Shown: piece by piece, positions 5,267 through 63,317 of the stretch
How the letters are laid out: every line of letters starts with the position of its first letter
How positions within the stretch are numbered: the stretch's first letter is position 1
Virus record (IMG/VR): IMGVR_UViG_3300030390_001877
Coordinates: 1-64,000 of that record
Reading direction: 5' to 3' (one strand)
Source of the DNA: a virus
DNA length: 64,000 bases
The notes under the pieces: model-generated
The model's input: the letters and a program-made list of their open reading frames with translations, nothing else
What the model was told of the DNA's origin: nothing
The model's database searches: none
Program-made: the position numbers and the translations under genes

Positions 5267-5295
5267 ATTATAACAGAAGAATTAGAAATTAACAA
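5267..5295 (-). promoter_or_regulatory. sigma70-type promoter of helicase-like gene
   Basis: TTGTTA-17-TATAAT. Confidence 0.6.
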
Positions 5296-6960
5296 CAAAC
5301 TATTTCTAATAACACCCTACTTCTTAGAAGCTGATTTCTAACTTTACTCTTAAAATATCTTTATATTGAAAGACTAAACCAATGTGATTAGAAATACCAA
5401 ATCAAGACGACTTTGCTAACGTGAGTTGTCTTGTCAGACGGACAACGTCCAGAAGAGGATACCTTTTAGAAGAGTATAAATAACCATAGTAATCTTTACT
5501 TAAACAACCCTACTCTAGAGAGTGCTAAATATAAGGGTATTAGAAACTAGATAGAAGAAGTTAGAGAAATCCTTCTATTATATTTCTATCTTATAAAATA
5601 TCCCCCTCTCCAAAAGGATAACATTTACAACCTTGTTGTAGAAATATCAATAGGTTATAGAATATAACAAAATATCATAGGGAGATAGAAATATCCTAGA
5701 AACATATCTATTTTATAGAAGCCTATTTTATAGAAAGTAAATATCTGAAAATAAAATTTTCTGGGAGGTGTTATTTTGGGAAGAGTGTTATCTATTTGGG
5801 GATGAAAATATCTGGGAGAGGGTTCCTTTAGAGAAAGGTGTATTGTTTGAGTAAGGTATTGTTGATAAAGGTGTTTTCTTATTAAGGAAGAAATTTTAGT
5901 GAGAGGTGTTAAGCACTGTTATAGTATAACATATCACTAACTTTTAAATATTAAAATATCTACCAATATCAAGCACTTTCTTAGAATAAATCCCCCAAGC
6001 ATATAACATTCTAGTATATGTTACCTTATCACAAAGAGTCTCCTTCTGTAACTACGTTACAATATAACATCTCTATTCAAAAGGGTTGCATATACAAATA
6101 AGATACATTCTCAATTATATTGAACATAACATAGTTTATAGGATGTCATCTATAAGAGGTTATTACTCTGTGAATACATATTCACAAATAGAATACTTAT
6201 GCAAAGAGGGTATTCCTTCTTATAGAAAGTCATTTGTTGATAATAGTTATCATATGAGAACAGTTATTGTTTATGAAAGGGTGTTATATTATCACGTACG
6301 TGATAGAAGTGTTATGTTATAGCATAGCTATAGAAAGTGTTATGTTATAACGTTCCGTTATGAGATAGGTTTTTCCTATTAAATGTTCCATTTAGAAAGT
6401 TATTACCTTTTATAGTAAGTGTTTGTGTTCTTAGTGTGTTTAACAACCCACATAAGAAGCACCTCCACTCACAAAGGATATACCTCCCCAAAATTACCCT
6501 TCCTAAATAGAGTACTTTTGTTACTACGTAACAGAATAATCACCCTTTGTAACGTAGTTACACAAGACACCTCTTTATACTTCGTATAGCCTATCACAGC
6601 TGCATTTCATGCAAACATAACAATCTATTAAAGCTACACTCTCATAAGCTCCTTACACTAGCTTATAGGTAGCTAATTTTTTATAAATAAACACCTCCTA
6701 AAAGCAGATAACACTACCTAAAAATGTTACATTATCACACTAATCCTATGTTAGTAAGAATAATACTTCTGTGACGTTGTCACAAAGAGGGTTAACTATT
6801 TGAAAACATTATATTTCTTTACTCTGTAAAGGGGGTTTACACTTAGTAAAGTAGTCTATTTGGTCAGCGTGATTTATCCAAGGGTAACACTGCGTTTAGG
6901 ATAATGTTATATTGTAACGTTGTTACAAAGAAGGGTAGGTTTAAGAGGGGTTTTACAGGT
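5296..6960. repeat. long non-coding region with TAGAAA-type repeats and TGTNAC-N3-GTNACA palindromes (origin or genome-end candidate)
   Basis: no credible ORF for about 1.7 kb; direct repeat CTATTTTATAGAA at 5708 and 5723; palindromes at 6047, 6519, 6548, 6770, 6913. Confidence 0.6.
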
Positions 6961-21345: not shown

Positions 21346-21543
21346 TTATTTTAAAGTTTCGTATGTATATTCTCCTAAGTCAATACGCAATTTTAAGAAA
21401 GCTATATAATCTTCCAGAGAATACCTTTCTTGTACAGGGAGTTTATATTCTAAATAGGTGGTGTTACCTTTTACAAGTTGTTCTATTCCAAAATGTGTAT
21501 CGTTTACGAAAAGTGTAAACCCTTTGTATGTTTGTTTATACAT
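21346..21543 (-). CDS. hypothetical protein
   Basis: AAGGA RBS. Confidence 0.65.
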   Translation of the reverse strand: MYKQTYKGFTLFVNDTHFGIEQLVKGNTTYLEYKLPVQERYSLEDYIAFLKLRIDLGEYTYETLK

Positions 21544-21544
21544 G

Positions 21545-22834
21545 TTAAGATTCCTTTACAATATGGCAGTTGTCACTAAAACCTAAAACATGTTCGTAAG
21601 CCTTGTGCATAGTGTCTTTTAATTCTTGTTCTTTCTCAATAGTACATCTGAAATCGTCGTGTACTTGTACTACAAGAGTTTTATGGTTCTGTATCATACT
21701 GTCTAAAACAAAGTCATTTATTTCAGCCCCAACGTTCTGTACACAATATCCTCTGTGGCTACTAAAGAACACTTCTCCAATCATATGGTGGTAGTCTAAC
21801 ATAATATCGATAACTTCTGCAGTTGGTATCATCTTAGAGGGGATTTTACCTTGTTTATGAAGTTTCTCAAGGTCCATATTTTCACTTATCCACATACTAA
21901 GTGCTCTTTTTGCCTGTGTTATATTATCACAGTTCAAGCATATAATAAAAATAGCTTTTGCTAGTTTCCTTGCTGTCTCAGGTTCATATCCATTCTCGTG
22001 TAGTACATCTAGTGTGTAAGGGTCTCCTTCCATGATTTCTTGTTTAATTGAATAGGCTATAGAAGGTTCAAAACCTTTATAATCATAGCAACAGGTAGAA
22101 TCACCACCTATGATCACCTCATCACGTTTCTCTCCACTTAATCTTTGATACTCACTCACCATTACTGATCTCCCACCATGATTGAAATCTTTGTTGAATA
22201 CTTTATATATCTGGGCATCCAACCGTGTATCTCTAAACAACACTTCTACTCCAAGACTAAACTTATTGTATCTTTTAGCATGAGCTATAGCTCTTTTGGC
22301 ATACTCATTTATTCTGTAAGTCTTTTCCTTTTTATTTTCATCCCTCAATTTAACTACATCATCTAATAAGTCAAAAGTTTCTGGTCTAACGACGTGCTTA
22401 TCGTACATTTCTTTTAGTTTATCATTAACCTTGAAATAACTTCTAGAGAATACTGTTGCAACCCATTCTTTACCAATGAATCCATAGTCCTCAACTTCTC
22501 CTCCTATAGTGAGGTCACCATAATCTTTCTGATGGAGGAATTGAAACAAAGACCTTGTGTAAGTATAACTTACTTTCCTTTTCGTGTCTCTCCCGTTAAC
22601 TATAATTTTCTTAGAATAGTTTGACTCATCCAACGTTATACCGAAAGTATCTTTTCTTGCTATAACACTTTTATTAAGATTCAGAACAAAACATCCGACT
22701 GCATTCTTTATTAACTTTCTTCTATTAACTGTTAAATTTACAAAATTACCCTTTAAATATTCTTCAAAATCTTCAATCAAAACCTCTCTTAGTTTGAATA
22801 AATATTTAGGTATTTTATGGTCTATTTTGTACAT
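21545..22834 (-). CDS. minimal family-A-superfamily polymerase (palm domain, no exonuclease)
   Basis: FN..FNHGGR pre-motif, motif A YDYKGFEP, motif B R..AK.IFIICLN, motif C VQVHDDF. Confidence 0.65.
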   Translation of the reverse strand: MYKIDHKIPKYLFKLREVLIEDFEEYLKGNFVNLTVNRRKLIKNAVGCFVLNLNKSVIARKDTFGITLDESNYSKKIIVNGRDTKRKVSYTYTRSLFQFLHQKDYGDLTIGGEVEDYGFIGKEWVATVFSRSYFKVNDKLKEMYDKHVVRPETFDLLDDVVKLRDENKKEKTYRINEYAKRAIAHAKRYNKFSLGVEVLFRDTRLDAQIYKVFNKDFNHGGRSVMVSEYQRLSGEKRDEVIIGGDSTCCYDYKGFEPSIAYSIKQEIMEGDPYTLDVLHENGYEPETARKLAKAIFIICLNCDNITQAKRALSMWISENMDLEKLHKQGKIPSKMIPTAEVIDIMLDYHHMIGEVFFSSHRGYCVQNVGAEINDFVLDSMIQNHKTLVVQVHDDFRCTIEKEQELKDTMHKAYEHVLGFSDNCHIVKES

Positions 22835-22966
22835 CTGAAATACCCCCTGAACACAAATACTTTACTATATATTATTTATTATTATCAAACACTTACTACT
22901 TTGTAACCCCTGTTTTGTCTTTTATAGTAGGAACTACTACCGCTATAACGCGGAATACAACCTTCT

Positions 22967-34484: not shown

Positions 34485-35893
34485 AAAGTTTCAACTTGAC
34501 ATACCCAAAGTTTAAAATATTTTATAAAGTGTTACAAAACCAGCAACAGATGGAACATTTACATTTGTTTTCTGTGAAAACATGTTATATGTTAAAGAAG
34601 GATTTACTTAACCTAAAAGGAGGTTGTTATGTTTTTAGCCCATAAGGTCGAACTGAGGCCTTCTAAAGAACAACAAGAAAAATTACTACAATGGATTGGA
34701 ACAACCCGACATTGTTTTAATAATTTACTAAGTAACTTTTCTAAAGAAGGTGTTAAGTTTTCTAAGAAAACTGCTAGGGAATACCTTTATAACACGTTAC
34801 GTGTTGATAATGAATGGTATTCTGACATAAGTCAGGAAATCTTACGAGAAACTATCAATGATTTAGAAAACGCTTACAAACGTTTCTTTAAGAAACTTGG
34901 AGGTTATCCAAGATTCAAGAAACGTGGAAGTAAAGCTTCTTTCTCTGTAAGAGACAAGGCTAAGTTTAAAGTAGAAGGTAGAAATCTTTACTTAGAAAAG
35001 TTTAATAAAGGTAAAGAGGGTAAGCCTTTAAAGTTACGTGAGAAACTTCGTTTCGAAGGGACTCCTAAGCAGGTCACCATTTCTTTCCAGAATGGAAAGT
35101 GGTGGGCTTCTATCTTAGTGGAAGGTTGCTCCAATTATAAAGGTAGTTTTCCGCAAAGCGGGGAAGCAGGGATTGATTTAGGTATTAAAGATTTAGCTAC
35201 ATTGTCTGATGGAACTACGTTCCAAAAGAGTAATAAGCTAACATTAAGTTTAAAGAAGTTATCTAAACTTCAAAGAGTATTTTCTAAGAAGAAGAAAGGT
35301 TCTAATCGTAGAGCGAAAGCCAAGCTTTCGATTAGTAAGCTTCATTTTAGAATAAAGAAACAACGTGAAGCATTGCTTCACAACGTAAGCCATACTATTA
35401 CATCTAAATATAAAACAATCTGCTTAGAAGATTTGTCTATCTCGTCTATGACGAAAGGTAAGAATAAGTCATTAAACAGAATGATTTTAGATGTAGGTAT
35501 GTATGAGTTGCGTAGGCAACTAGAGTATAAATCTTTTCTGAGAGGTGTTGACATCCACTTCGTGGATAGGTATTATCCTTCAAGTAAACTACATTATGAG
35601 TGTGGCTTTAAGAATGACAACCTTAAATTAGGAGAATCTAATTGGAAGTGTGGTAACTGTGGTCAACAAGTTGACCGAGATTTAAATGCTTCCAAGAATA
35701 TCCTAAAAGAAGGGGTGAAACACTTACGTGTTTAAAGTATAAATTGTGGACGTAGTTCACGAGAGGAGACAGGTACAAGCTTCTCTATAATCCCTACGGA
35801 GTAGGAAATGTAATCCTTAATTTATTAAGTTGTTTCTGTTAATTACGTAGATAACCTAACGAATGTTTCATTCGTTGCGGTTTTATGTATCGG
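34485..35893 (+). mobile_element. non-autonomous tnpB element, IS607-like ends (no tnpA)
   Basis: GGAAAG at both inferred junctions (34483-34488, 35892-35897); excision restores a short ORF ending at the next RBS. Confidence 0.55.
34629..35735 (+). CDS. tnpB: RNA-guided endonuclease TnpB
   Basis: OrfB HTH N-term, RuvC-I GIDLGIK, RuvC-II EDL, PSSK..ECG and CGNCG Zn finger, RuvC-III DRDLNA. Confidence 0.92.
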   Translation: MFLAHKVELRPSKEQQEKLLQWIGTTRHCFNNLLSNFSKEGVKFSKKTAREYLYNTLRVDNEWYSDISQEILRETINDLENAYKRFFKKLGGYPRFKKRGSKASFSVRDKAKFKVEGRNLYLEKFNKGKEGKPLKLREKLRFEGTPKQVTISFQNGKWWASILVEGCSNYKGSFPQSGEAGIDLGIKDLATLSDGTTFQKSNKLTLSLKKLSKLQRVFSKKKKGSNRRAKAKLSISKLHFRIKKQREALLHNVSHTITSKYKTICLEDLSISSMTKGKNKSLNRMILDVGMYELRRQLEYKSFLRGVDIHFVDRYYPSSKLHYECGFKNDNLKLGESNWKCGNCGQQVDRDLNASKNILKEGVKHLRV

Positions 35894-39202: not shown

Positions 39203-42200
39203 TTGAGTGATGACGGTTTATTTATTGGAGAACACCAGTATTGTTTAGCTAAAGAGTTTCCTGTTAAATCAGATGGAACGCAGCGTAGGTCTTGCGGTTC
39301 AAGTGACGCATTAGCTATTTATGAACATACAACTGTAGATGGTGTTACTTGGTATGATGGTACGTGTTTCTCTTGTAAACAAAAGTTTGATAGAGAAGAA
39401 GTACACTCTAGTAGTTTGTCAGGTTTTTTAGGGGTAGGAGAAGGTACTCTAGATGTAGTAGATAAAAAGGAGTTTGAAAATAAAGCTACTAAGAAGAAAA
39501 AGATTACTCGTGAAGAAGTGCAAGATCTTTGGTTGCGTACTGGAGGCAGGGAAGGTAATTCTGGTAAAGGTTATCGTGGTTTAAGTGATTGGGTGCTTAA
39601 ATTTTATGGACACAGAGTTGAGTATGATAAGCAAGGGAAGGTAAGTTCAATATATTACCCAGAGACTTCATCAGAAGATGGTAAGCTTAATGGTTATAAA
39701 TCTAGACACTTACCTAAGAAATTTGGTATAGGTAATCTAGGTAAGACAGGGGTAGTAAATCAGCTATCAGGGCAGCATAAGTTCCCTAATGGTGGGAGGT
39801 ATGCGTTAATTGCCGCTGGAGAAGAAGATAAGTGTGCTGCACAAGATATGCTACGTGAATACCAAAAGATGAAAGGACAAGAAGATTATGATCCTTATGC
39901 TGTAGTATCCCCTACAACAGGAGAACCCTCCGCAGCTAAACAATGTAGGCAACAGTATGATTGGTTTGATAAGTTTGAAGTTATAATTATTGGTATGGAT
40001 TCTGATGAAGTAGGGGAAGAAGCAGCCTTAGAGATTGCAAAAGTCTTACCAAGAGATAAAGTTAGAATAGCTAGATGGTCAGGTAAAGATCCAAACCAAA
40101 TGTTACTTGATGGTAAAAAGAAACAATTCTGGAGTGATTTCTTTGGTGCTAAGGAAGTCGTAGATAGTGGGGTATATAACGCTAATGATGACATGGTACA
40201 AGATGTAATTGATGTACTGACTACTCCTAGGATACCTTTACCTCATTTTGCTAGTAAATTAGAAGCTATGACAAAAGGATCAGGTTTGTTTACTAGGTCT
40301 ATATACTCATTAATAGGGGATACATCTGTAGGGAAGTGTCACGGAAAAGGTACAACTATTTTGATGCATGACCTTACTACTAAGAAAGTAGAAGACGTGG
40401 AGATAGGTGATCTGTTAATGGGGGATGACGGAACTAAAAGGGAAGTCAAGAAAGTACATAAAGGTTTTGATACTTTATACAATATAGAGCAATGTGATGG
40501 GGTTAATTATACTGTAAACAGTAAACATACACTATCCCTTAGAACAGGTTTTGATACTGTAATTAAAGGGTCTGACAGAAATAAAAGTAGAAGGTGTGCT
40601 GTTGATTATAAAAAAGGGCAAATTGTTAATATAGATGTACAAGATTATATTAAACTTCCTGCTTTAGCTAAAAGGTCTTTGAAAGGGTATAAAGGTTCTA
40701 TCCAAGAAGGCATAACTAGTAATATTAAACACCCTTGGTTATTAGGTATGTGGTTAGGTGATGGGCACACTAACCAAGCGAGAATAACTTTAGCTAAAAG
40801 TAATGTTGAGATCATAGATAAAATTGAAGATATAGTAAGAGAAGAGGATTATTACATAACTGTACCTCCTTCTTGTGATAGAGATACTACTTACACTTAT
40901 AGTATTGGTGGAGGTTTTAGAACTTATCTTACAAAACACTCTTTGATAGGGTTTAAGCATATCCCTAAAGATTTACTTTTAGGTAGCAGAGAAGAAAGAT
41001 TGCAACTTTTAGCAGGTATTATAGACTCAGATGGGTATCTAAATAGTAATGGTTGTTCTTATGAAGTTACTCAAAAAAGTAAAAAGTTAGCAGAAGATAT
41101 ACAAACTTTATGCAGGACTTTAGGTTATCGTTGTAGTATTAATTTGAGCAAAAAGTCTTCACAAAATGGTACAGTAGGTGAGTACCACAGAATGTGTATT
41201 ACAGGTGCTATTCACGAGATACCAGTAATCTTGTCTTATAAAAAGGCAAAAACTCAATCTGATTTACGTAAAGACAACAACACAGCTATAAAAGTGTCTT
41301 GTTTAGGTGGAGGAGATTATTATGGTTTTGAGGTAGACGGTAATCATCTATATTGTTTAGAAGATTTTACAGTGACACATAATAGTACGCACATAGATGC
41401 ATGGATATTCCATTGGATGTTTAATGTACCAGACCATAAAGTAGGTATTGTGAGTGTAGAAGCCACTAAAGGCGAGTGGGTTGCTGGTATGTTGTCTACT
41501 TATCTAGAAAATAACCTTTGGTGGATTCCTGTAGATGAGATAGAAAGTTATATGAATACTCCAGAAGTAAAAGCTAGAATTAATAACTTCTTTTACAATG
41601 AATATGGAGAAAGTAGGTTCGCTATTGTTGATGATAGGGAAGGAACAGTAGAGTCTTTGCAGAAATGTATAGACAAACTTGAGAGGCAGTACGGTTGTAC
41701 TATTATAGTGAATGATGTACTTACAGATATACTTCGTGTTGTAGATAATGAAGCTCAAGCAAGACATTTCAACTGGCAAAGTAATTTCGTTAAGAATGGT
41801 GCTACTATTTTCAATATATTACACACTCGTAAGTCAGGTGATAATCGAGGAGGAAAACCTACTTTCCCTAATGAGTTTGATGCCTACGGTAATTCTATCT
41901 TCGTCCAGAAAGCAGCAGGTAACTTTGTAATAGCCCGTAATAAAGAAGCACCTAACGATGATACTATTGAACAAAACACTACCTACTTGAGAGTACCTAA
42001 ACTTAGAAAAGGTGTTACTGGTAGTGGTGGTGCTTGGTATTATGACGGGGAAACTAGGAAGGTTTATGATCGAGATACCTACTTTAAGGATAATCCTGAA
42101 AAACTACCAACAGGTTATGACTTATCTATAAGCAGTTTTGATAGAGCCTATTGGGAAGAAGGTGGGCGTGGTTGGGATGGTGTTTCTGATAATAAAGGAG

Positions 42201-42280
42201 GTTTCACTAAAAAAGCGGTTAAAGTTGAAAAGGTAGAAAAAGATTGGGAAATAGATGTTGGAGATGGTACTAAATTCTAG
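39203..42280 (+). CDS. T7 gp4-like DNA primase-helicase containing an intein
   Basis: Zn finger C..SDA...CFSC, TOPRIM GEED...DSD, Walker A GDTSVGK[intein]ST, helicase VSVE, FNILHTRK. Confidence 0.92.
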   Translation: MSDDGLFIGEHQYCLAKEFPVKSDGTQRRSCGSSDALAIYEHTTVDGVTWYDGTCFSCKQKFDREEVHSSSLSGFLGVGEGTLDVVDKKEFENKATKKKKITREEVQDLWLRTGGREGNSGKGYRGLSDWVLKFYGHRVEYDKQGKVSSIYYPETSSEDGKLNGYKSRHLPKKFGIGNLGKTGVVNQLSGQHKFPNGGRYALIAAGEEDKCAAQDMLREYQKMKGQEDYDPYAVVSPTTGEPSAAKQCRQQYDWFDKFEVIIIGMDSDEVGEEAALEIAKVLPRDKVRIARWSGKDPNQMLLDGKKKQFWSDFFGAKEVVDSGVYNANDDMVQDVIDVLTTPRIPLPHFASKLEAMTKGSGLFTRSIYSLIGDTSVGKCHGKGTTILMHDLTTKKVEDVEIGDLLMGDDGTKREVKKVHKGFDTLYNIEQCDGVNYTVNSKHTLSLRTGFDTVIKGSDRNKSRRCAVDYKKGQIVNIDVQDYIKLPALAKRSLKGYKGSIQEGITSNIKHPWLLGMWLGDGHTNQARITLAKSNVEIIDKIEDIVREEDYYITVPPSCDRDTTYTYSIGGGFRTYLTKHSLIGFKHIPKDLLLGSREERLQLLAGIIDSDGYLNSNGCSYEVTQKSKKLAEDIQTLCRTLGYRCSINLSKKSSQNGTVGEYHRMCITGAIHEIPVILSYKKAKTQSDLRKDNNTAIKVSCLGGGDYYGFEVDGNHLYCLEDFTVTHNSTHIDAWIFHWMFNVPDHKVGIVSVEATKGEWVAGMLSTYLENNLWWIPVDEIESYMNTPEVKARINNFFYNEYGESRFAIVDDREGTVESLQKCIDKLERQYGCTIIVNDVLTDILRVVDNEAQARHFNWQSNFVKNGATIFNILHTRKSGDNRGGKPTFPNEFDAYGNSIFVQKAAGNFVIARNKEAPNDDTIEQNTTYLRVPKLRKGVTGSGGAWYYDGETRKVYDRDTYFKDNPEKLPTGYDLSISSFDRAYWEEGGRGWDGVSDNKGGFTKKAVKVEKVEKDWEIDVGDGTKF
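40337..41383 (+). mobile_element. intein (349 aa) with LAGLIDADG homing endonuclease
   Basis: starts C-HGKGT after GK, ends VTHN before S; WLLGMWLGDG and LLAGIIDSDG motifs. Confidence 0.92.
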
Positions 42281-42324: not shown

Positions 42325-45165
42325 ATGCAAGCAGAGTTTTTAAAAGATAAGAGTAAATTTACAAATAGGTTGCTGCATAGTGACGTGGAAGCTAGAGGCT
42401 TTATAGATATAGTTAATAAACCTGAAGATGTGTGGTGTTTGGTTTCAAGAGATGATGAAACTGATGAGGTATTTATATTCCACGACTACCCTGAGTACGA
42501 TAACGCAGAAGTATTCGACCAAGGAGAGAAACATATTATTCCTCCTAGAACAGGAACTCTCTTAGACGGAGTTAGGTTTTGGTATCTAGCAGGTAAGAAT
42601 GGTAGTAAGCTATCTGTGCATAACTGCTTCACCTATGATAAACCTTTAATAGAAAAGATCTGGCCTAAGTGTATTATTGATGATGATGTTTGGGTAGATA
42701 CTTTTATACAAAGTAAGATTCAATATTTTGACAGACCACAACGGAAAGGAGCTAAATCTCCTCACGGTTTGTTGAATTACTCTTTGATGGAAGGTAATAA
42801 GAAACCTGAAGTAGAAGACTTTAGTATTATGAATGCTTTTATGCTACATCGTTGTATAGTAGATACTAAGACTCAGAAGTTTGCACATAACTATCTTAAA
42901 AAAGAAAGAGATATGCTTTTGAGTAAGCTTGGTATTGACATGCAAGATGCTTATAAGATGGAGGTAGAGTATACAAAAACATGTTACGAGCAAGAACAGT
43001 ACGGAGCTAAGGTAGATGTACCACATATTAAAAAATGTATTGAATATCTTGATAAAACTACCGCAGATCTAGCAAAAGATATAACACCTAAACTCCCTCC
43101 TACTATTAAGGTAAGTGGTGGCAAAGTATCTCGTGTTGAGATGGCAGGTTTGTTTGGTTATGATACATCTGGTATGAAAGATGAGATGGAAATGGTTAAG
43201 AAAGATGGTGAAATGGTTTCCCAACCAGTTAAACCTTATTATAAACCTACCACTAATTTCCATACTATTAAAAAAGTTAATCAATATTCAGGTTTTAATA
43301 TTTCCTACGGGTACAGCCCTAAGTTTACTAAAAAGAATGACCTGACTAAATGGATTAAATCTCAACACCCCAAAGGTGACACTGCAAAAGTAAAAGAGTT
43401 ATCAGACTTCGTAAAAGAATGGGAGATTGATAAAAACATTGAAGAAACTAAACTTTTAAATAAAAACACTTGTGATTATTTTGAAGTAGAACCAGAAGAT
43501 ATAGATGTTATTGCTGGTGCTCACACTAAAATTAAGTTTGTTGAAAGCTCTTTGACCCAACATGAAGTGGTAAAAGGTTATCTGATAAAAGAAGGTATAA
43601 AATTCGCAGAAGAATGGAATCTTAAGAAGGATGGTGAAGGTCAGATCATAAAAGCTGAATTTGATACTGAAGTTAGGTATCCACCTAAAGCCAGAAGAGA
43701 TCAACAAATGGTGTTGAAGATTAAAAAGGGTGATGCATTAGTAACTTCCCCTAAGTTCGGGGAAAAAGAATATGCTCAATTAGAATCAGAAGATGGTAAG
43801 AATGTAGGTATGTACAACACTTTGGTACACCGTAGGCGTTACCTTGAGAACTACAAAGACCCAGAAAATAAAGGCTTACTTTCTTACGTAAGAGAAGATG
43901 GTAGGGTTGGTGCTGGTGTTAATAACTTCAACACTGCAACTGGGCGCGCATCACACAGAAAAATTGTAAATTTGCCTGCTGATGGTGCTGTATTTGGTAA
44001 AGAAATGCGACAATGTATTGTTGCTGATGAAGGAAAAGAGTTAGTCGGTATTGACCAAAAATCTAGCCAACTTTCTATATGCGCTTTTGTAACTAACAAT
44101 ACAGATTATTATGAGGCGGTTGCGACAGGGGTAGAATTCGAAAATGATGAAAATGGAAATCCTATTTTCCATGGTTCTAGTGCTCATTGTGTGAATTCAA
44201 GATATTTTAATTTGGTAACCAAAGAAGAATGGGCAGATGCAGTAAGAACACAAAACCCAGATTTGATACATGATATTGTACTCAGACGTAAAAAATCCAA
44301 AGGATTAAGTTTCGCTTCGTTATTTGGTTGTGGTCCTGCTAAGTTAGCTTTAATGGGTGGTTTTGAAGTATCAGAAGCTAAAACAAAACTGCAAGCCTTC
44401 TTAGATAATATGGGTTTATCTGAGGTAATAAAATTTCTAGAAGTATGTAGGGAGAAATACAAAAGAGGTAAAGGTTTTTATATACCAACAGGGTTTGGGT
44501 ATTGGGTTTATTGCGGAGGTGTACATAAATCAACCAACTACCTGATCCAGTCGCTAGAAGGAGTGGTGCAAAAGAAAGCAGTTGAAATAATGAAACAGAG
44601 GTTTATAGAAAAAGGTTATTGGGGAAAAAGCGTTAATAAAATACTTGATATGCATAAATATTGTGCCTTCTAACCGTGAGGTTAGTCGAATAACTCCGTT
44701 AATTACTGGAAACCTTAACTAGATTTGTTAATATTATCGTGAGATAAATTTAACATGTTTGTAGAAGGTGATCAGAAGCCACACTGTTCTTACAGTAGGT
44801 TCAGAGACTATCGAAAGCGTATGTATCAATGGAAGATACTATATACAGCAAGTAGAGTAGGGTTCAAGCGAATTCGAAAATGGAGCATCTTAGTTAAGAT
44901 GATTATATAGTCCGACTCTGTTAGAAATAACAGGAGATTTAGCGAGTCTCATAAGTAGGTGGATGAAGTATTATTAGAAGTAGATAAAGGTATGGGTGTT
45001 GAGGTAGGCAAAATCGCTTGTGAAGCTTACACTCAAGCTGGAGTGGAATTAAATAAATGGTATAAAGAAAATTTACATTTATATCCTGCAGGCGGTACAC
45101 CTAAGATTACCTGTGATTTTGCAGGAGGTTATGCTGTTGGGGTAGACTACGCAAGTTGCCATTGA
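42325..45165 (+). CDS. family A DNA polymerase; join 42325-44655 and 44962-45165 (844 aa)
   Basis: ExoI DVE, motif A GIDQKSSQL, motif B K..SFASLFG; splicing restores motif C LDMH|DEVL. Confidence 0.92.
44656..44961 (+). ncRNA. group I intron (306 nt, no ORF) in polymerase motif C
   Basis: P1 GCAU/GUGC with U-G pair; P AAUUACUGGAAA, R GUUCAGAGACUA, S UAUAUAGUCC; terminal G. Confidence 0.92.
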
Positions 45166-45185
45166 TTTTTAATAAGGAGTATACT

Positions 45186-45992
45186 ATGAGAAAAAGAAAG
45201 TACGGAGAAGGTTACACAGCAATAGGTAATTATGGAGAATTTACAGTAATATCTTATTTGAATAAAAATGAAGTATTGATACGTTTCAATGAAACGGGTT
45301 ATGAAGTTTGGTGTGCATCTAATAATGTAGCTAAAGGTACAGTAAGAGATCCTTACTTTAAGTCTGTCTATGGGGTAGGTTATATAGGAGACACTGCAAC
45401 ATCTAATAGGGTAGGGGATAAAAATATACTTAAAACTTCTTACAATACTTGGCACGATATGCTAAGACGTTGTTACGCAAACAACGAAGGTAAAATGAAA
45501 ACATATGAGAATTGTGATGTGTGTGACGATTGGTTGTGTTATGCTACATATGAAAGGTGGTTTGATGATAACTATATTGAAGGTTTTCAGGTAGATAAAG
45601 ATTTCTTAAAATTAGGTAACAGAACATATTCTCCTGAAAATTGTGTTTTTCTTCCTAGAGAGATAAATGCTACTATAGGCTTTAAGACTAATAATACCAC
45701 CCGACAAGAGGATTACAAGGACTTACCAGTTGGAGTATCTTTTCATAAAAGAGATGAAGTATATACCGCTAGATGTTGGTGCGATGGAAAACTAAAATCT
45801 TTAGGTTACCACAAAACACCTGATTTAGCTTTTAGCTCTTATAAAAAATTCAAAGAAGATAAATTGAAAAGCTTAGCTGAGTTTTACTTTTCTGAAGGTA
45901 AGATTTGTCAAGAAGTTTACAATAATTTAAAAAATTATGTTGTATATCCAGAAGGTCATGCTTATTACCTGAAAAACTACAACATACAATAA
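45186..45992 (+). CDS. free-standing HNH-type homing endonuclease with AP2-like domain
   Basis: W.DMLRRCY, VCDDW, QVDKD..GNRTYSPENC, then GVSFHKR..YTA..SLG; ATG 45186 after AAGGAG. Confidence 0.8.
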   Translation: MRKRKYGEGYTAIGNYGEFTVISYLNKNEVLIRFNETGYEVWCASNNVAKGTVRDPYFKSVYGVGYIGDTATSNRVGDKNILKTSYNTWHDMLRRCYANNEGKMKTYENCDVCDDWLCYATYERWFDDNYIEGFQVDKDFLKLGNRTYSPENCVFLPREINATIGFKTNNTTRQEDYKDLPVGVSFHKRDEVYTARCWCDGKLKSLGYHKTPDLAFSSYKKFKEDKLKSLAEFYFSEGKICQEVYNNLKNYVVYPEGHAYYLKNYNIQ

Positions 45993-53062: not shown

Positions 53063-54238
53063 TTGGGTGTAGTAACAATACACGAACACTTAGGTAAGAC
53101 TTACTTAAACAAACAAGGAAATACTCTCACTGTTGTTGGTTACGTTAAGAATGATACAGGTAGAGGTTATAAGTTAACAGTTACTTGTAGTAAATGTAGC
53201 GAAGATAAAGAATTGTTCCCTGACCCCTTCCCTATACTTTATAGTAAATTAAAAGCAGGAAGAAGTCCTTGCGGTTGTACTAGAATTATATACACAGAAG
53301 ATCAAATAAAAATATTAGCGAAAAGGAAAGCGAAGGAATTAGGGCACACCTTTTTAGGCTTCACCGATGAATTCGTAAGTAACAGAGTTACTGACCTTAT
53401 TATAAAATGCCCTCATGAAATTAAAGAAATTAATTGCCACCTCTACCTTAACTATAGTAAACACGGATGTAATAGTTGTGCTTCTGAGAGGGTATCTGAA
53501 AGCTATATCTCTAAGTATGAATACCCTTCGTGCGTGGAAGAAGTTAGATCTACTGAAGTAAAAGATTATGGAAGCAGGTATCATGAGTACAAGTGTTCAG
53601 TATGCTCTTATGATTGGTATGTTGTTAACGGTTTTTGTGATGGTTGGTTTAGTTTCAAGCCATGTAGGCTTAGTAAGGGAATCTTTACTTGTCGTTGTAA
53701 CTTAAATTATTTCCCAAAAGACTCTGATAGATATAATTTAGGAAGGGCAATCAAAAGTCGTCTGCCACATAAAAATATAAAAGTTTTAGACTTTAAGGGT
53801 GATAGGATACTTTTTGAATGTTCTTATCACGGAAAAGGTGATCAAAACTCCTCTAGTTGTTTTGAAGGGAGACTTCCTAAATGTTGTGTTAAGAATTCAT
53901 GGGGATATTACGAAGATAGAAAATATGATACAGATTACCTTTACTTCGTAAGTATGGAAGACATGGAGAACAATAAATACATAAAGATAGGAAGGTCTTT
54001 TAACCTTATGACCAGAATACAAGATTTAGAAGACGGTTATTTTGTTGACTTGCTTTATCTACTAGAATCTCCCCACAAGGATATATATAAGTATGAAAAA
54101 TTCTTCCATAAAGTTTTTCGCAAGTACCGAGAACAACCTCCTACTTATTTTAAAGGGGAAACTGAAGTTTTTAATTATACTGTATTAGGAGATAAGGATT
54201 TCAAATTACTTGTGTCAGATTTTATAGAAGGTTACTAA
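53063..54238 (+). CDS. T5orf172/GIY-YIG homing-type endonuclease with repeated Cys-rich DNA-binding modules
   Basis: C-term YLYFV...YIKIGRS..R and YE..FH; N-term CSKC..PCGC, CSVC..CRC modules; TTG after AGGAG. Confidence 0.75.
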   Translation: MGVVTIHEHLGKTYLNKQGNTLTVVGYVKNDTGRGYKLTVTCSKCSEDKELFPDPFPILYSKLKAGRSPCGCTRIIYTEDQIKILAKRKAKELGHTFLGFTDEFVSNRVTDLIIKCPHEIKEINCHLYLNYSKHGCNSCASERVSESYISKYEYPSCVEEVRSTEVKDYGSRYHEYKCSVCSYDWYVVNGFCDGWFSFKPCRLSKGIFTCRCNLNYFPKDSDRYNLGRAIKSRLPHKNIKVLDFKGDRILFECSYHGKGDQNSSSCFEGRLPKCCVKNSWGYYEDRKYDTDYLYFVSMEDMENNKYIKIGRSFNLMTRIQDLEDGYFVDLLYLLESPHKDIYKYEKFFHKVFRKYREQPPTYFKGETEVFNYTVLGDKDFKLLVSDFIEGY

Positions 54239-59923: not shown

Positions 59924-62900
59924 TTATTTAGTTGTGGATAATCCAGAGGTAGCCCCTACATATCCTATCAGTTGTTTCATCTCGTCTGCGGAAGAGTTGT
60001 TGAAAATATAGGTGTTTCCCCCTTGTTGTTGATTACTTGTAGAAGGATTACCATCAGAGAACATATAGTTATAAGCTCCTTTCAGAGTAGGATATGCTGT
60101 CAAGTTTAATAATGAAGCTGAGTCTCTTTGTGATGAGAGGATATTCCCTAAGAAAGAGTTTTCATCTAAACCAAATAATTGACTTGTTTTACCTGCTCTA
60201 AGCTTTCCTTCTTTATCCTGAGTAAACCCTGATGTGGTCATTTCCCTGAGGTTAACCTGCATACCTGCACTTTCTTCTATATTACCCACAATCTTATCCG
60301 AGAAAAGAGATACTAATTCTTCTGCTGCTGCTAAGGCTAGTGTGATTGGAAGGAATGCTTTTGCTAAAGCTGCGTTAGTGGATAAAGCTACTATACCCAT
60401 AGTCTTACCAAAGGCTAGAAGTTTACTTATCGCTAAAGCTCCGAACAATAGTTCAAAGTTATCAATAGCAACTTTAATCACAGGTTCTATAAGCTTTAAA
60501 GAATAAGCAATCCCATTAAATACTGCTCCGAATATTTTACCCATCTTCTCAAGTTGTGGTCCTGAGGTTTTGAGTATTTGTGAAATTGTTTTGTAAAGAT
60601 TAGATAATCCTTCTGAGAAACCTGATTTGAAGATAGTATCTCCTGCACGCTGGGTTTCTGTGATCATCTGACCTTCTGTAACACGTAATCCTTGAAGAGC
60701 CTTATCGAAAGCGCCACCTTCTAGAGCTGCCTTTTTTAGTTCGGCGGCTACTTTAGGTAATACTTCTGAGGAAACAAGTTGACCCTGCTCCATCATCTTG
60801 AATAATTCTGCTTCTGAGACGTTTAGTGCTCTGCTGAACACCTGAACTGCACCTGGAAGGCTATCACCTAGCTGATTTTTGAGTTCCTCCAGTAAAGCTA
60901 ATAAAATCAATAACTTAGCTAAACACCTACACCTTCTCAGGGTAGCCTGATCATATCATAACCCTCGCCATTCTACGTTAGGGTTCCTGCCTTTTCTTCC
61001 TCTAAGAGGTTCTACTCTACTAACTTACCAAAGGTAGTCTACGCTACCTTATCCGCTTTCGATGATCGATGATCGTGAATCTACTTCTTACGTTTATTTA
61101 CTGTTATACTATATTGTTCCCATATGTGTTTCCAAGCATGTCCTGCACGTATCTTAGTGGCTTGCTGTCTACTGATTTCGTACTTTTCAACAGCTTCTTT
61201 AGGCATCATACCTTTCTCAAAATCTTTACAAACTTTGTGTACTAAATCTTCTGTTAAAACACTTCTACCATTCAAAGTACCTTTTAGTGCTGGTGTATTA
61301 CCGACTCTCCAAGACTCTTTAGTGTTGTGTTCGTGCGTACACCATTCCAGATTAGAGTAGTGGTTATTAGTCTTATCATGGTCAATATGATTAACACAAA
61401 CAACATAAGGGTAGTTTTCTGAACATAACTTTTTCAATTCTTCCGAAGGCTCTTCTAAAAAATACATTGCTACTAATCTGTGGACTTTTCTAGCAAATGT
61501 CTTACCATCTTTCTTAAATTGTACTTGGTAGTAACCCTGTTTATTTACAGGTACGTATTTCTTAGTTTTGGTTTTAATGTTCCTTATTAAACCTTCACAG
61601 TTTATTTCATACTTAGGAAATTCTTCTATAACTTTAAACATAAATATAACCCTTATTCTATTAAAAGGTTATTGTAGATCATTCGAGGCTGATTGTCAAT
61701 ATTTTCAGAATTTTTAGGGTTCGCTACTATGTCACCATGTAGTATCCTATCTGAAATCTAACTTGAGTTCCCAGCAGTTAAACAGGTTATTCGATAACAG
61801 TTTCCTGTTAAAGGGCCAAAGAACTTTTAGCCATTACCTTCCCTTTTGACATCCAATCTCTTCGAGTAAGTACGTTAACCCTTACTCCGCAAGTTCCTTA
61901 TTGCAGCTCTATATCACTATAGAAGTTGAGACTATATCTTCACCCTTACCGTTACGTATTAGGGGTTGTGCGCTTCCACTCACTTGAGTGTACAGGTTTC
62001 ATAATCCCAGAAGGATCGTTTACCTTAGTCGTTACACCTTGATAAGAATTACTTCCTACCCTTGGCTCGGTATTGTCTACTTGAGAGTTCCACCGAATTC
62101 ACACAATTTGTTCATGCTTATTACTAAGCAGCCAGACAATAATCGTCTATCTGGATCAAAGCTTTCTGACTTCGCTTCATGCTTTCGTCATCTACTTTCA
62201 ATGATGTACCAAACATACTCAATCCTGTGAATATATCTTCTTGCTGATCTTGAGAAATCTTACCTTTTGCAGCAAATTTGAACTTTACCCAAGCATCAGT
62301 TGTATCTTTTAAACTAAGTCCCATCTTATCAACAATACTATTGATAAAAAGCATATCTGTTGCTGCGGCATCAGCACTACCAGCAGCAGCTAGCATAGAT
62401 GCATCGATCCCTTGAAATGTCTGCCCAACACGTTTAATAGCAACAGTCCCTTCAAACAAAGCAAACAAACTTGCATAAGAACGGATCATATTACGAGTAG
62501 AGTCATTTAATCCTCCCTGAACAACATTCAATCCCATCATATTACGTTTTAAAGATTTAGTCTCTCTGTTAACAGATCTCATCTCAGAAGCTAGACGAGT
62601 CATTGCAGCAGTGTCACCTACTCTAACAGCATCTCCAAATCTTTTATCATAAGAAGACATATCCTTTCCAGAAGATTTCATGTTCTGATAATAAGCTGTA
62701 CTTTGGAAACGTGCTATCTTGTTTGCAAAAGCTTGTTGACGTTTAGTAGCAGCCTTGGCAAGCTTATCCTGCTGTGCGTAGAAGTCTTTCATCTTCTTGA
62801 GTTCTTCATCTTGGGCAGTCATCTTCTTGACGTGTTGCTTCATGAAAGCATTATTAACTTCTTCACTAGAAGATTTTATTTTAGCATTATTCCTAAGTTT

Positions 62901-63317
62901 TATTTTAAGAAGATCTTGCTCTCGTTTGTTTTCCTTTTTAAAACGTTCTTCTACATTAGCTTTTAAAGCAGCTTCCACCCTATTAAAGTCCGATACCTTA
63001 GCAGAAGCTACATCCCTCCCAGCTTGCTTACTTTGCTTGTAAACTTTTAACCTTTCTTGTAAAGATTTCCTGCCGTTAGAAATTTCCTTATCTCTCGCAG
63101 CTTTGTCTTCTTTAATACGTTTGTTGATGATGTACTTTTGGTAATTAGCCGTCCCTTTAAGATCTTTCCTTTTAGACCTCTCAATCTTACCAGACCTTTT
63201 TACAGCCCTCATCCCCATGGAATCCAGCATCTTATCGATTTCTTTAGCTTGTTTACCAACTCCTTTAGTATTCAAGTCTATATCAATAAAAAACTGTTCA
63301 ATCATATTATCTGCCAT
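59924..63317 (-). CDS. tape measure protein; join 63317-62149, 61853-61829, 60889-59924 (719 aa)
   Basis: splicing restores ALIQ-MMSKGKVMA-EELKNQLGDSLPG, the tape-measure N-terminal domain motif. Confidence 0.9.
60890..61828 (-). ncRNA. group I intron 2 of tape measure (939 nt, carries HNH ORF)
   Basis: P1 GGCU/GGCC, P10 GUUCUUU/GAGGAAC, P AACUGCUGGGAA, P7 GAUCA/UGAUC, terminal G. Confidence 0.88.
61081..61641 (-). CDS. intron-encoded HNH homing endonuclease (NUMOD4-HNH, I-HmuI-like)
   Basis: EEFPKYEIN.EG.IRN; VHRLVA..F; VNHIDHDKTNN..SNLEWCT..N. Confidence 0.9.
   Translation of the reverse strand: MFKVIEEFPKYEINCEGLIRNIKTKTKKYVPVNKQGYYQVQFKKDGKTFARKVHRLVAMYFLEEPSEELKKLCSENYPYVVCVNHIDHDKTNNHYSNLEWCTHEHNTKESWRVGNTPALKGTLNGRSVLTEDLVHKVCKDFEKGMMPKEAVEKYEISRQQATKIRAGHAWKHIWEQYSITVNKRKK
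61854..62148 (-). ncRNA. group I intron 1 of tape measure (295 nt, no ORF)
   Basis: P1 CCAGAU/GUCUGG, P GAAUUCGGUGGAA, Q AAUACCGAG, R GUGUAACGACUA, S AAGAUAUAGUCU, terminal G. Confidence 0.92.

Follow-up and report, generated by a model that had tools for sequence, protein, structure and literature searches.

The window, a 64,000-nt stretch of viral DNA (positions 1 to 64,000 of the IMG/VR record IMGVR_UViG_3300030390_001877, from a marine phage with a 132-kb genome), contains an open reading frame (ORF) at 21545–22834 that encodes a new member of the published divPolA2 family, not a new kind of enzyme. With moderate confidence, the product is predicted to be active as an accessory DNA polymerase that lacks an exonuclease and has poor processivity. 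The observation, made originally from the DNA letters, that this phage carries a second, minimal polymerase of the family A superfamily is confirmed.

Sequence and structural evidence for a family A polymerase

All the motifs on which that observation was based (GGR, YDYKGFEP, R..AK and VQVHDDF) are present in the ORF as written. The window protein has no match in Pfam, including DNA_pol_A (PF00476) at E ≤ 10, and none among PDB sequences searched with phmmer; PF00476 is also absent from the 25 Pfam families listed for 70 relatives scanned at E ≤ 1. The protein matches PHROG 4756, a family of unknown function, with an E-value of 1e-112, whereas a search of the ESM Atlas returns hypothetical-protein clusters only, and an hhalign comparison with the phage's own PolA gives a probability of 0.2. 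A match to Cas12i in PADLOC (E 7e-4, residues 131–198) was judged spurious.

The AlphaFold2 model, built with 25 homologs, is confident (predicted local distance difference test score 91.5, predicted template modeling score 0.81). The top Foldseek matches of this model in the PDB are family A polymerases only, with a probability of ~1.0 and a best E-value of 8e-6, namely the apicoplast polymerase, Aquifex Pol I, Bst, Taq, Klenow, Pol theta and T7 DNA polymerase; the structural neighbors also include the mitochondrial RNA polymerase 6ymv and the virion RNA polymerase (vRNAP) of phage N4. This comparison, which had been suggested as a check of the original prediction, recovers the palm and fingers fold of family A polymerases and upholds the superfamily assignment. 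The features that identify a family A polymerase, that is, the palm and fingers fold with the motif A aspartate, the RxxxK signature of motif B and the motif C aspartate, are all present.

Among the 70 relatives, which show 19–83% identity to the window protein, R222, R237, D251, Y273, K293 and D393 are invariant, and G221, D271 (64/70) and R289 (69/70) are at least 90% conserved. N301 occupies the O-helix position of Klenow Y766 and T7 RNA polymerase Y639; this position is Asn in 60 of the 70 relatives and Tyr or Phe in 7. A profile of the 70 sequences aligns with Aquifex Pol I weakly, below HMMER significance (E 0.07), and this alignment pairs GGR with TGR (Klenow R668), D-Y-K-A-L-H/E with D-F-S-Q-I-E (D705...E710), and VHDS/D with VHDE (D882).

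Compared with Pol I, the window protein shares motif A (D-Y-x-x-x-E), motif B (R-x-x-A-K-A-I) and motif C (Q-V-H-D-[DE]) but lacks the exonuclease domain and the long two-helix thumb, and has Asn in place of the O-helix Tyr766. The polymerase alignments start only at residue ~152–170, in agreement with the initial claim that there is no exonuclease. In the model, neither a long two-helix thumb nor an exonuclease domain is apparent. The β-hairpin is preceded by helices 138–147 and 177–193 only, and the long helical pair (10–29 and 36–58) lies at the far N-terminus. The N-terminus was also correctly described as novel; we place this domain at residues 1–150, with no confident homolog. It is predicted to be a winged-helix-like domain of ~150 aa with mixed α/β structure, and a search with this domain alone found nothing like the N-terminal domains of RNA polymerases.

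A catalytically dead polymerase fold that only binds DNA or RNA is extremely improbable. The missing thumb and the replacement of the O-helix Tyr by Asn would agree with such a loss, but both aspartates, the O-helix Lys and Arg (the latter in 69 of the 70 relatives) and the hairpin Arg are kept down to 19% identity, the pattern expected of an active polymerase.

Membership in the divPolA2 family

The divPolA2 family was named by Yutin et al. (DNA polymerase swapping in Caudoviricetes bacteriophages, Virol J 2024;21:200, PMC11348598). According to that article, these proteins were noticed first in 110 barbaviruses and later also in other Caudoviricetes, are present in one to three paralogs per genome in variable neighborhoods, and combine a conserved palm with a novel N-terminal globular domain, without a thumb homolog or an exonuclease; a repair DNA polymerase and an RNA polymerase are the functions proposed there (PMC11348598).

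A BLASTP comparison of the window protein with Barba19A gp041 aligns residues 4–414 with 25% identity (E 1e-27), and both proteins fall within one tree. A tblastn search identifies homologs in 204 phage records, including ICP1 vibriophages, other Vibrio phages, Aeromonas phages, the Pseudoalteromonas phages HM1 and PH357, and 115 Rheinheimera 'Barba' records, the last matching with 25% identity over 96% coverage (E 1e-20). An exhaustive search yielded 993 representatives of 50%-identity clusters, and a narrower metagenome scan contributed 13 more loci. A search for fusions or longer architectures found none above 752 aa, which is weak evidence, and the family members of 480–555 aa contain no Pfam domain.

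The window protein is homologous to the Barba proteins, has a palm without a thumb or 3' exonuclease, and is encoded alongside a regular replicative DNA polymerase. It shares with the barbavirus proteins the palm, the missing thumb and exonuclease, the N-terminal domain, the structural neighbors, the variable neighborhood and the presence of paralogs. Given the full-length alignment with Barba19A gp041 and the matching structural results, this gene is a new member of a known family. The differences are that the co-resident replicase is PolA in the marine phage and PolB in barbaviruses, and that the window copy belongs to a clade with a Glu gate and an [HF]D[ED] motif C, whereas the Barba proteins have Trp and HDS. 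The gate-type split, the linkage to XRE-type helix-turn-helix (HTH) genes and the upstream hairpins discussed below are not described for divPolA2 in the portion of PMC11348598 considered here.

The steric gate and the choice between DNA and RNA

The steric-gate position lies five residues after the motif A aspartate (D251 to E256), as in Klenow (D705/E710). RNA polymerases of the T7 type have Gly at this position. Among the 70 relatives, it is occupied by His in 42, by Glu in 21, and by Gln, Phe, Tyr or Cys in the remainder; the Barba19A protein has Trp, and Gly, Ala or Ser is never found in the sequences compared. A Glu gate pairs with an [HF]D[ED] motif C in 18 of 21 sequences, and a His gate with HDS in 40 of 42. 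In a quick maximum-likelihood tree, the Glu-gate sequences, with the window protein inside, form one branch (Shimodaira–Hasegawa-like approximate likelihood ratio support 99), so that gate and motif C may go together owing to one event in the past, and their pairing does not count as independent evidence of coupling.

The window protein combines DYKGFE with QVHDD and accordingly falls in the Pol I-like clade. In Pol I, Glu710 is the canonical steric gate (PMC13369328). Since Glu256 occupies the same place and motif C is likewise of the Pol I kind, the sequence points, by a modest margin, to the use of deoxynucleoside triphosphates and hence to a DNA polymerase. Other observations temper this reading. 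The modeled structure is equally similar to RNA polymerases, and HDS prevails in the family, which leaves room for RNA synthesis; in addition, the in-place replacement of alleles in ICP1, described below, suggests caution in a functional reading of the gate residue.

The alternative in which the protein is a minimal single-subunit RNA polymerase, like N4 RNAPII or a half-size T7 RNA polymerase, is unlikely. The role of such an enzyme would be to transcribe a small number of phage genes, or to produce transcripts for origins or priming, and it might start at extruded DNA hairpins, of which the one with a GAA triloop that precedes its own gene is an example. Against it, the gate is never Gly and is Glu here, as in Pol I; a specificity loop and an intercalating hairpin region are missing, with only ~90 residues between motifs B and C; and the N-terminal domain is unlike those of RNA polymerases. 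In comparison with N4 RNAPII (gp15+gp16), N4 vRNAP and T7-like RNA polymerases (PMC4496689), the window protein has neither a T7-type N-terminal promoter domain nor a specificity loop, and no DX2GR partner subunit. The Pfam family RNA_pol (PF00940) does not match the window protein and matches just 2 of the 70 relatives, at no better than E 0.05.

Comparison with TV-Pol and other primase-polymerases

The TV-Pol family (Iyer, Abhiman, Aravind, Biol Direct 2008;3:39, PMC2579912), which is found in viruses, has a core consisting of a β-hairpin Arg, two palm Asp residues, a fingers Asp and RxxxK; its prediction as a primase rests on fusions and neighborhoods with D5-type helicases (PMC2579912). 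These core residues are matched in the window protein by R222, D251 and D393, D271, and R289xxxK293, and nucleases are missing here too, so that, judging from the match to the described core features, the protein appears to resemble TV-Pol. The resemblance does not extend to the context or to the N-terminus: in ~25 loci examined, there is no linkage or fusion to a D5-type helicase, resolvase, integrase or transposase, and the N-terminal domain appears to be mixed α/β and winged-helix-like, whereas that of TV-Pol is all-helical.

The second point of comparison is CcPol, a demonstrated primase that needs an adjacent partner with an oligonucleotide/oligosaccharide-binding (OB) fold and is encoded in an operon of the polymerase with a protein that binds single-stranded DNA (SSB), a helicase and a recombinase (PMC10061031). 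As in the CcPol-MP and PolA-SSB primases of SCCmec and Bacillota elements (PMC7581432; PMC10061031), a truncated family A domain resides here on a mobile or viral genome, and a start of synthesis without a classical primer is plausible for both. Those enzymes need a small OB-fold SSB partner encoded next to them; here neither such a partner nor a downstream helicase was found in the loci compared.

A primase-polymerase of the TV-Pol or CcPol type, the product of which would be DNA primers started de novo on single-stranded DNA or a hairpin, for example at an origin or in a mobile cassette, is quite unlikely. The minimal TV-Pol core, a reduced thumb such as has been discussed for CcPol, a stable upstream hairpin, and the location of the ICP1 homolog a few kb from the theta-origin peak would all suit it. 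On the other side of the scale, no helicase, SSB/OB-fold or recombinase partner is conserved in the ~25 loci; the phage already encodes a Toprim primase-helicase (39203–42280); and divergent ICP1 alleles in a variable slot, together with one to three paralogs per genome, ill suit a single essential initiator. Accordingly, the part of the original prediction that concerned minimal core features of PolA and T7 RNA polymerase stands, whereas the specific assignment to TV-Pol-type primases finds no counterpart in helicase or SSB linkage and is over-specific; on the whole, that prediction is partly supported, being right on the superfamily and the minimal architecture. It did not take into account the published divPolA2 family, the second paralog or the use of deoxynucleoside triphosphates favored by the Glu gate.

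Accessory position, a second paralog and allele replacement in ICP1

The polymerase gene of the marine phage is located in a long leftward block of small genes without Pfam matches, ~17 kb away from the replisome genes, as the description of an accessory block had it. The replicative family A DNA polymerase, at 42325–45165, is intact although its gene is divided: inside motif C, PolA is interrupted at 44646–44934 (+) by a group I intron (Rfam RF00028, 53.7 bits), exon 1 ending with ...ILDMH at ~44660 and exon 2 beginning with DEVLLEV at ~44960. The phage therefore does have a full PolA, as claimed, and this intron-split gene at 42.3–45.2 kb, not the window enzyme, is the replicase. In the motif A of this PolA (residues ~570–580 of the product of 42325–44673, G-I-D-Q-K-S-S-Q-L-S), the position five residues after the Asp is Gln, where Pol I has Glu, according to a low-probability hhalign alignment only. 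The Toprim primase-helicase, on the plus strand, contains an intein, and its Toprim_2 match is weak, just under the Pfam cut-off.

Accessory status of the window enzyme follows from the lack of a neighbor conserved across lineages and from the exchange of alleles in one slot among ICP1 isolates. All-against-all comparison of the ORFs of 17 loci detects no common neighbor across lineages, with the exception of XRE-HTH genes in some, and no helicase, SSB or recombinase neighbor is conserved when all of the ~25 loci are considered. The tightly coupled downstream ORF of 65 aa (21346–21543) matches no Pfam family and lacks a homolog even in L004, the relative with 82% identity, and a CcPol-MP-like gene pair was rejected given that this ORF is not conserved.

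A single-protein search of the 132-kb genome detects the window copy only, whereas a profile search finds a second paralog of 443 aa at an E-value of 4.7e-71 (genome positions 88814–90145, minus strand, outside the window; L040:815–2146, minus strand), which overturned the view that there is a single copy per genome. The second paralog is 26% identical to the window copy, belongs to the His-gate/HDS type and lies far away on the tree, so that one phage genome keeps both gate types.

ICP1 isolates differ in what lies between GP97 and GP103: this slot, bounded by flanks that are 98–99% identical, occurs in two versions. The 2001 isolate (NC_015157, 53113–55849) carries ORF98–99, ORF100 (a 555-aa protein of the His type), ORF101 and the Mom-like ORF102, and the 2017 isolates (L038/L001) carry GP97.1, an XRE-HTH gene and ORF100.1, of the Glu type. 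This replacement marks the gene as accessory and fast-evolving and suggests that His-type and Glu-type enzymes are able to stand in for one another. The slot is a few kb from the coverage peak of the ICP1 theta origin, which has been placed 'near 60 kb' (PMC7145576); this coincidence concerns a single phage and is of low resolution.

In ICP1, Aeromonas phage 4L372D and the Vibrio phages 496E54-1 and 1.161.O, an HTH_3 (XRE) gene is located directly upstream of the polymerase gene and is oriented like it, and an XRE-like ORF of 79 aa is found upstream of the second paralog (L040:2378–2617), so that the linkage extends to at least five lineages; the window copy has no HTH gene beside it. Under a further alternative, the protein would be an arms-race effector, that is, a polymerase fold controlled by an XRE-type regulator that counters host or satellite defense or damages competitors. 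The direct upstream position of the HTH_3 gene in several lineages, together with the XRE-like ORF at the second paralog, yields an antitoxin-first layout reminiscent of toxin–antitoxin systems; the ICP1 slot alternates between a Mom-like DNA-modification cassette and an HTH–polymerase cassette; in phage qdvp001, a DNA methylase is encoded directly 3' of the homolog; and the neighborhood is variable, with many paralogs. This evidence is purely contextual, the window copy has no HTH neighbor, and neither PADLOC nor Pfam shows a link to defense or anti-defense families. An effector of this kind, which would make or modify nucleic acid and not serve phage DNA metabolism, is highly unlikely.

The upstream hairpin

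Gaps of ~50–200 nt precede most homologs in other phages, as one precedes the window gene. In the window, this region includes a double hairpin, the coding strand of which reads CCGC-GTTATA-GCGG and then TAGTAG-TTC-CTACTA; given the TTC loop on the coding strand, the template (+) strand carries a 5'-GAA-3' triloop. The DNA fold z-score of the element is -3.3 to -3.5, and it is unique in the 132-kb genome. In L004, the nearest relative, the first stem (CCGC/GCGG) is kept and its loop rewritten, and in the second stem one pair is changed on both sides, from T:A to G:C, a compensatory change. No Rfam family was detected in the upstream region, and no canonical terminator was found.

Promoters of N4 vRNAP are template-strand hairpins of this loop type (PMC4496689). 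Of 20 lineages, 4 have a G-R-A triloop hairpin with a stem of at least 6 bp at most 150 nt upstream (binomial P 2.5e-5 relative to background), in a test that was defined post hoc; the orientation is not the same in all lineages, and four more lineages that were inspected later have no such hairpin. Other lineages bear different palindromes (e.g., TAATGG-N4/5-CCATTA), which could equally be operators for dimeric regulators. In view of the post hoc test, the varying orientation, the four lineages without a hairpin and the alternative palindromes, the lead is weak. The double hairpin is a local, possibly meaningful cis element and not a family trait. For an RNA polymerase recognizing such structures, a hairpin that occurs once in the genome provides no mark of a regulon, and the hairpin is not conserved across the family.

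A palindrome of the form TAATGG(T)-N3-5-(A)CCATTA was observed upstream of the homologs in L002, L028, L026 and L009, at -45, -44, -118 and -78 from the ATG, respectively. That of L002 lies between the XRE-HTH and polymerase genes, which suggests a candidate operator.

Predicted mechanism

If the protein is the accessory DNA polymerase that we favor, D251 of motif A and D393 of motif C would support two-metal catalysis, R289 and K293 of the O-helix would hold the phosphates of the incoming nucleotide, and R222 of the β-hairpin would touch the template. The N-terminal domain may grip the nucleic acid in place of the thumb; with such a grip, synthesis is expected to be template-directed, confined to short tracts, unproofread and poorly processive. 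The predicted sugar choice follows from the gate as discussed above. The enzyme would probably act on special DNA ends or structures, in gap filling, in repair after host attack, or in local priming and extension.

Features of the polymerase gene and other elements of the window

Table 1. Coordinates of the divPolA2 gene of the window, its domains and motifs, and its upstream elements
Feature	Position	Strand	Remarks
divPolA2-family polymerase gene	21545..22834	-	429 aa; stop codon within coordinates
N-terminal domain, aa 1-150	22385..22834	-	predicted helices 10-29 and 36-58, then a helix/beta-wing unit
G220-G221-R222, beta-hairpin Arg	22169..22177	-	equivalent of Klenow R668; aligns to TGR of Aquifex Pol I
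Motif A, aa 249-258 (CYDYKGFEPS)	22061..22090	-	D251 catalytic; E256 at steric-gate position
D271-P-Y273, fingers motif particular to the divPolA2 family	22016..22024	-	conservation in 70 sequences
Motif B / O-helix, aa 289-301 (RKLAKAIFIICLN)	21932..21970	-	R289 (R289-K-L-A-K293), K293, N301
Motif C, aa 389-395 (VQVHDDF)	21650..21670	-	D393 catalytic; aligns to VHDE of Aquifex Pol I
Intergenic region upstream of the polymerase gene, 132 nt	22835..22966	-	
Double hairpin	22925..22953	.	90 nt upstream of ATG

Several other elements of the window were observed. The intein of the primase-helicase carries a LAGLIDADG homing endonuclease (Hint, E 2e-18; LAGLIDADG_3, E 9e-10), and the intron-split PolA is followed by a Pfam-negative ORF of 278 aa (45156–45992). 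A second group I intron (RF00028, 70 bits) at 61907–62158 (-) overlaps the 3' end of the ORF 62124–63317. A TnpB/IS605 OrfB-type gene is located at 34629–35735 (+), with matches to OrfB_IS605 (E 1e-21) and to the Cas12f1-like TNB domain (E 2.5e-17); around it, at 34.2–35.9 kb, where gene orientation and GC skew switch, several triloop hairpins cluster. The gene at 53063–54238 (+) encodes CapR-homology and T5orf172 nuclease-like domains, like the ICP1 homing-endonuclease relatives of PLE CapR.

The tract at 5290–6930 is mostly non-coding and contains at least 8 copies of a 15–16-nt palindrome of the TGTTAC-N3/4-GTAACA type (e.g., TGTAACGTTGTTACA), often followed by AAAGAG; it resembles an operator or iteron array. 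A link between the polymerase and this tract, on which a test of the enzyme had been suggested, is unsupported; its palindromes are operator-like and unrelated in sequence to the hairpin of the polymerase gene.

Implications

The gate clades, the second paralog, the alternation in the ICP1 slot, the upstream XRE linkage and the local hairpin are the new elements of this analysis. The family is widespread in phages, with ~1000 clusters at 50% identity, the cholera phage ICP1 included. A speculative and quite improbable extension is that divPolA2 enzymes are not repair polymerases but specialized nucleic-acid synthesis modules, forming a private system for priming or origin activation, or one of DNA or RNA synthesis for counter-defense. 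Under this reading, the maintenance of two deeply diverged types in one 132-kb phage would point to complementary roles of the Glu-gate/HD[DE] 'DNA-like' and the His-gate/HDS 'T7-RNAP-like' enzymes, one possibly starting chains de novo at structured DNA, for example the G-N-A triloop hairpins that lie beside some copies, and the other extending them, in a synthesis that would be controlled by XRE-type regulators and independent of both the T7-like replisome and the host RNA polymerase.

Experimental handles are provided by the presence of both gate classes in a single genome, by the exchange of alleles in ICP1, a tractable system, and by the candidate cis elements and XRE-HTH regulators. Settling whether the product is DNA or RNA and whether chains start de novo would help to define the minimal requirements of a family A polymerase, and divPolA2 could reveal a new phage strategy of priming, repair or counter-defense.

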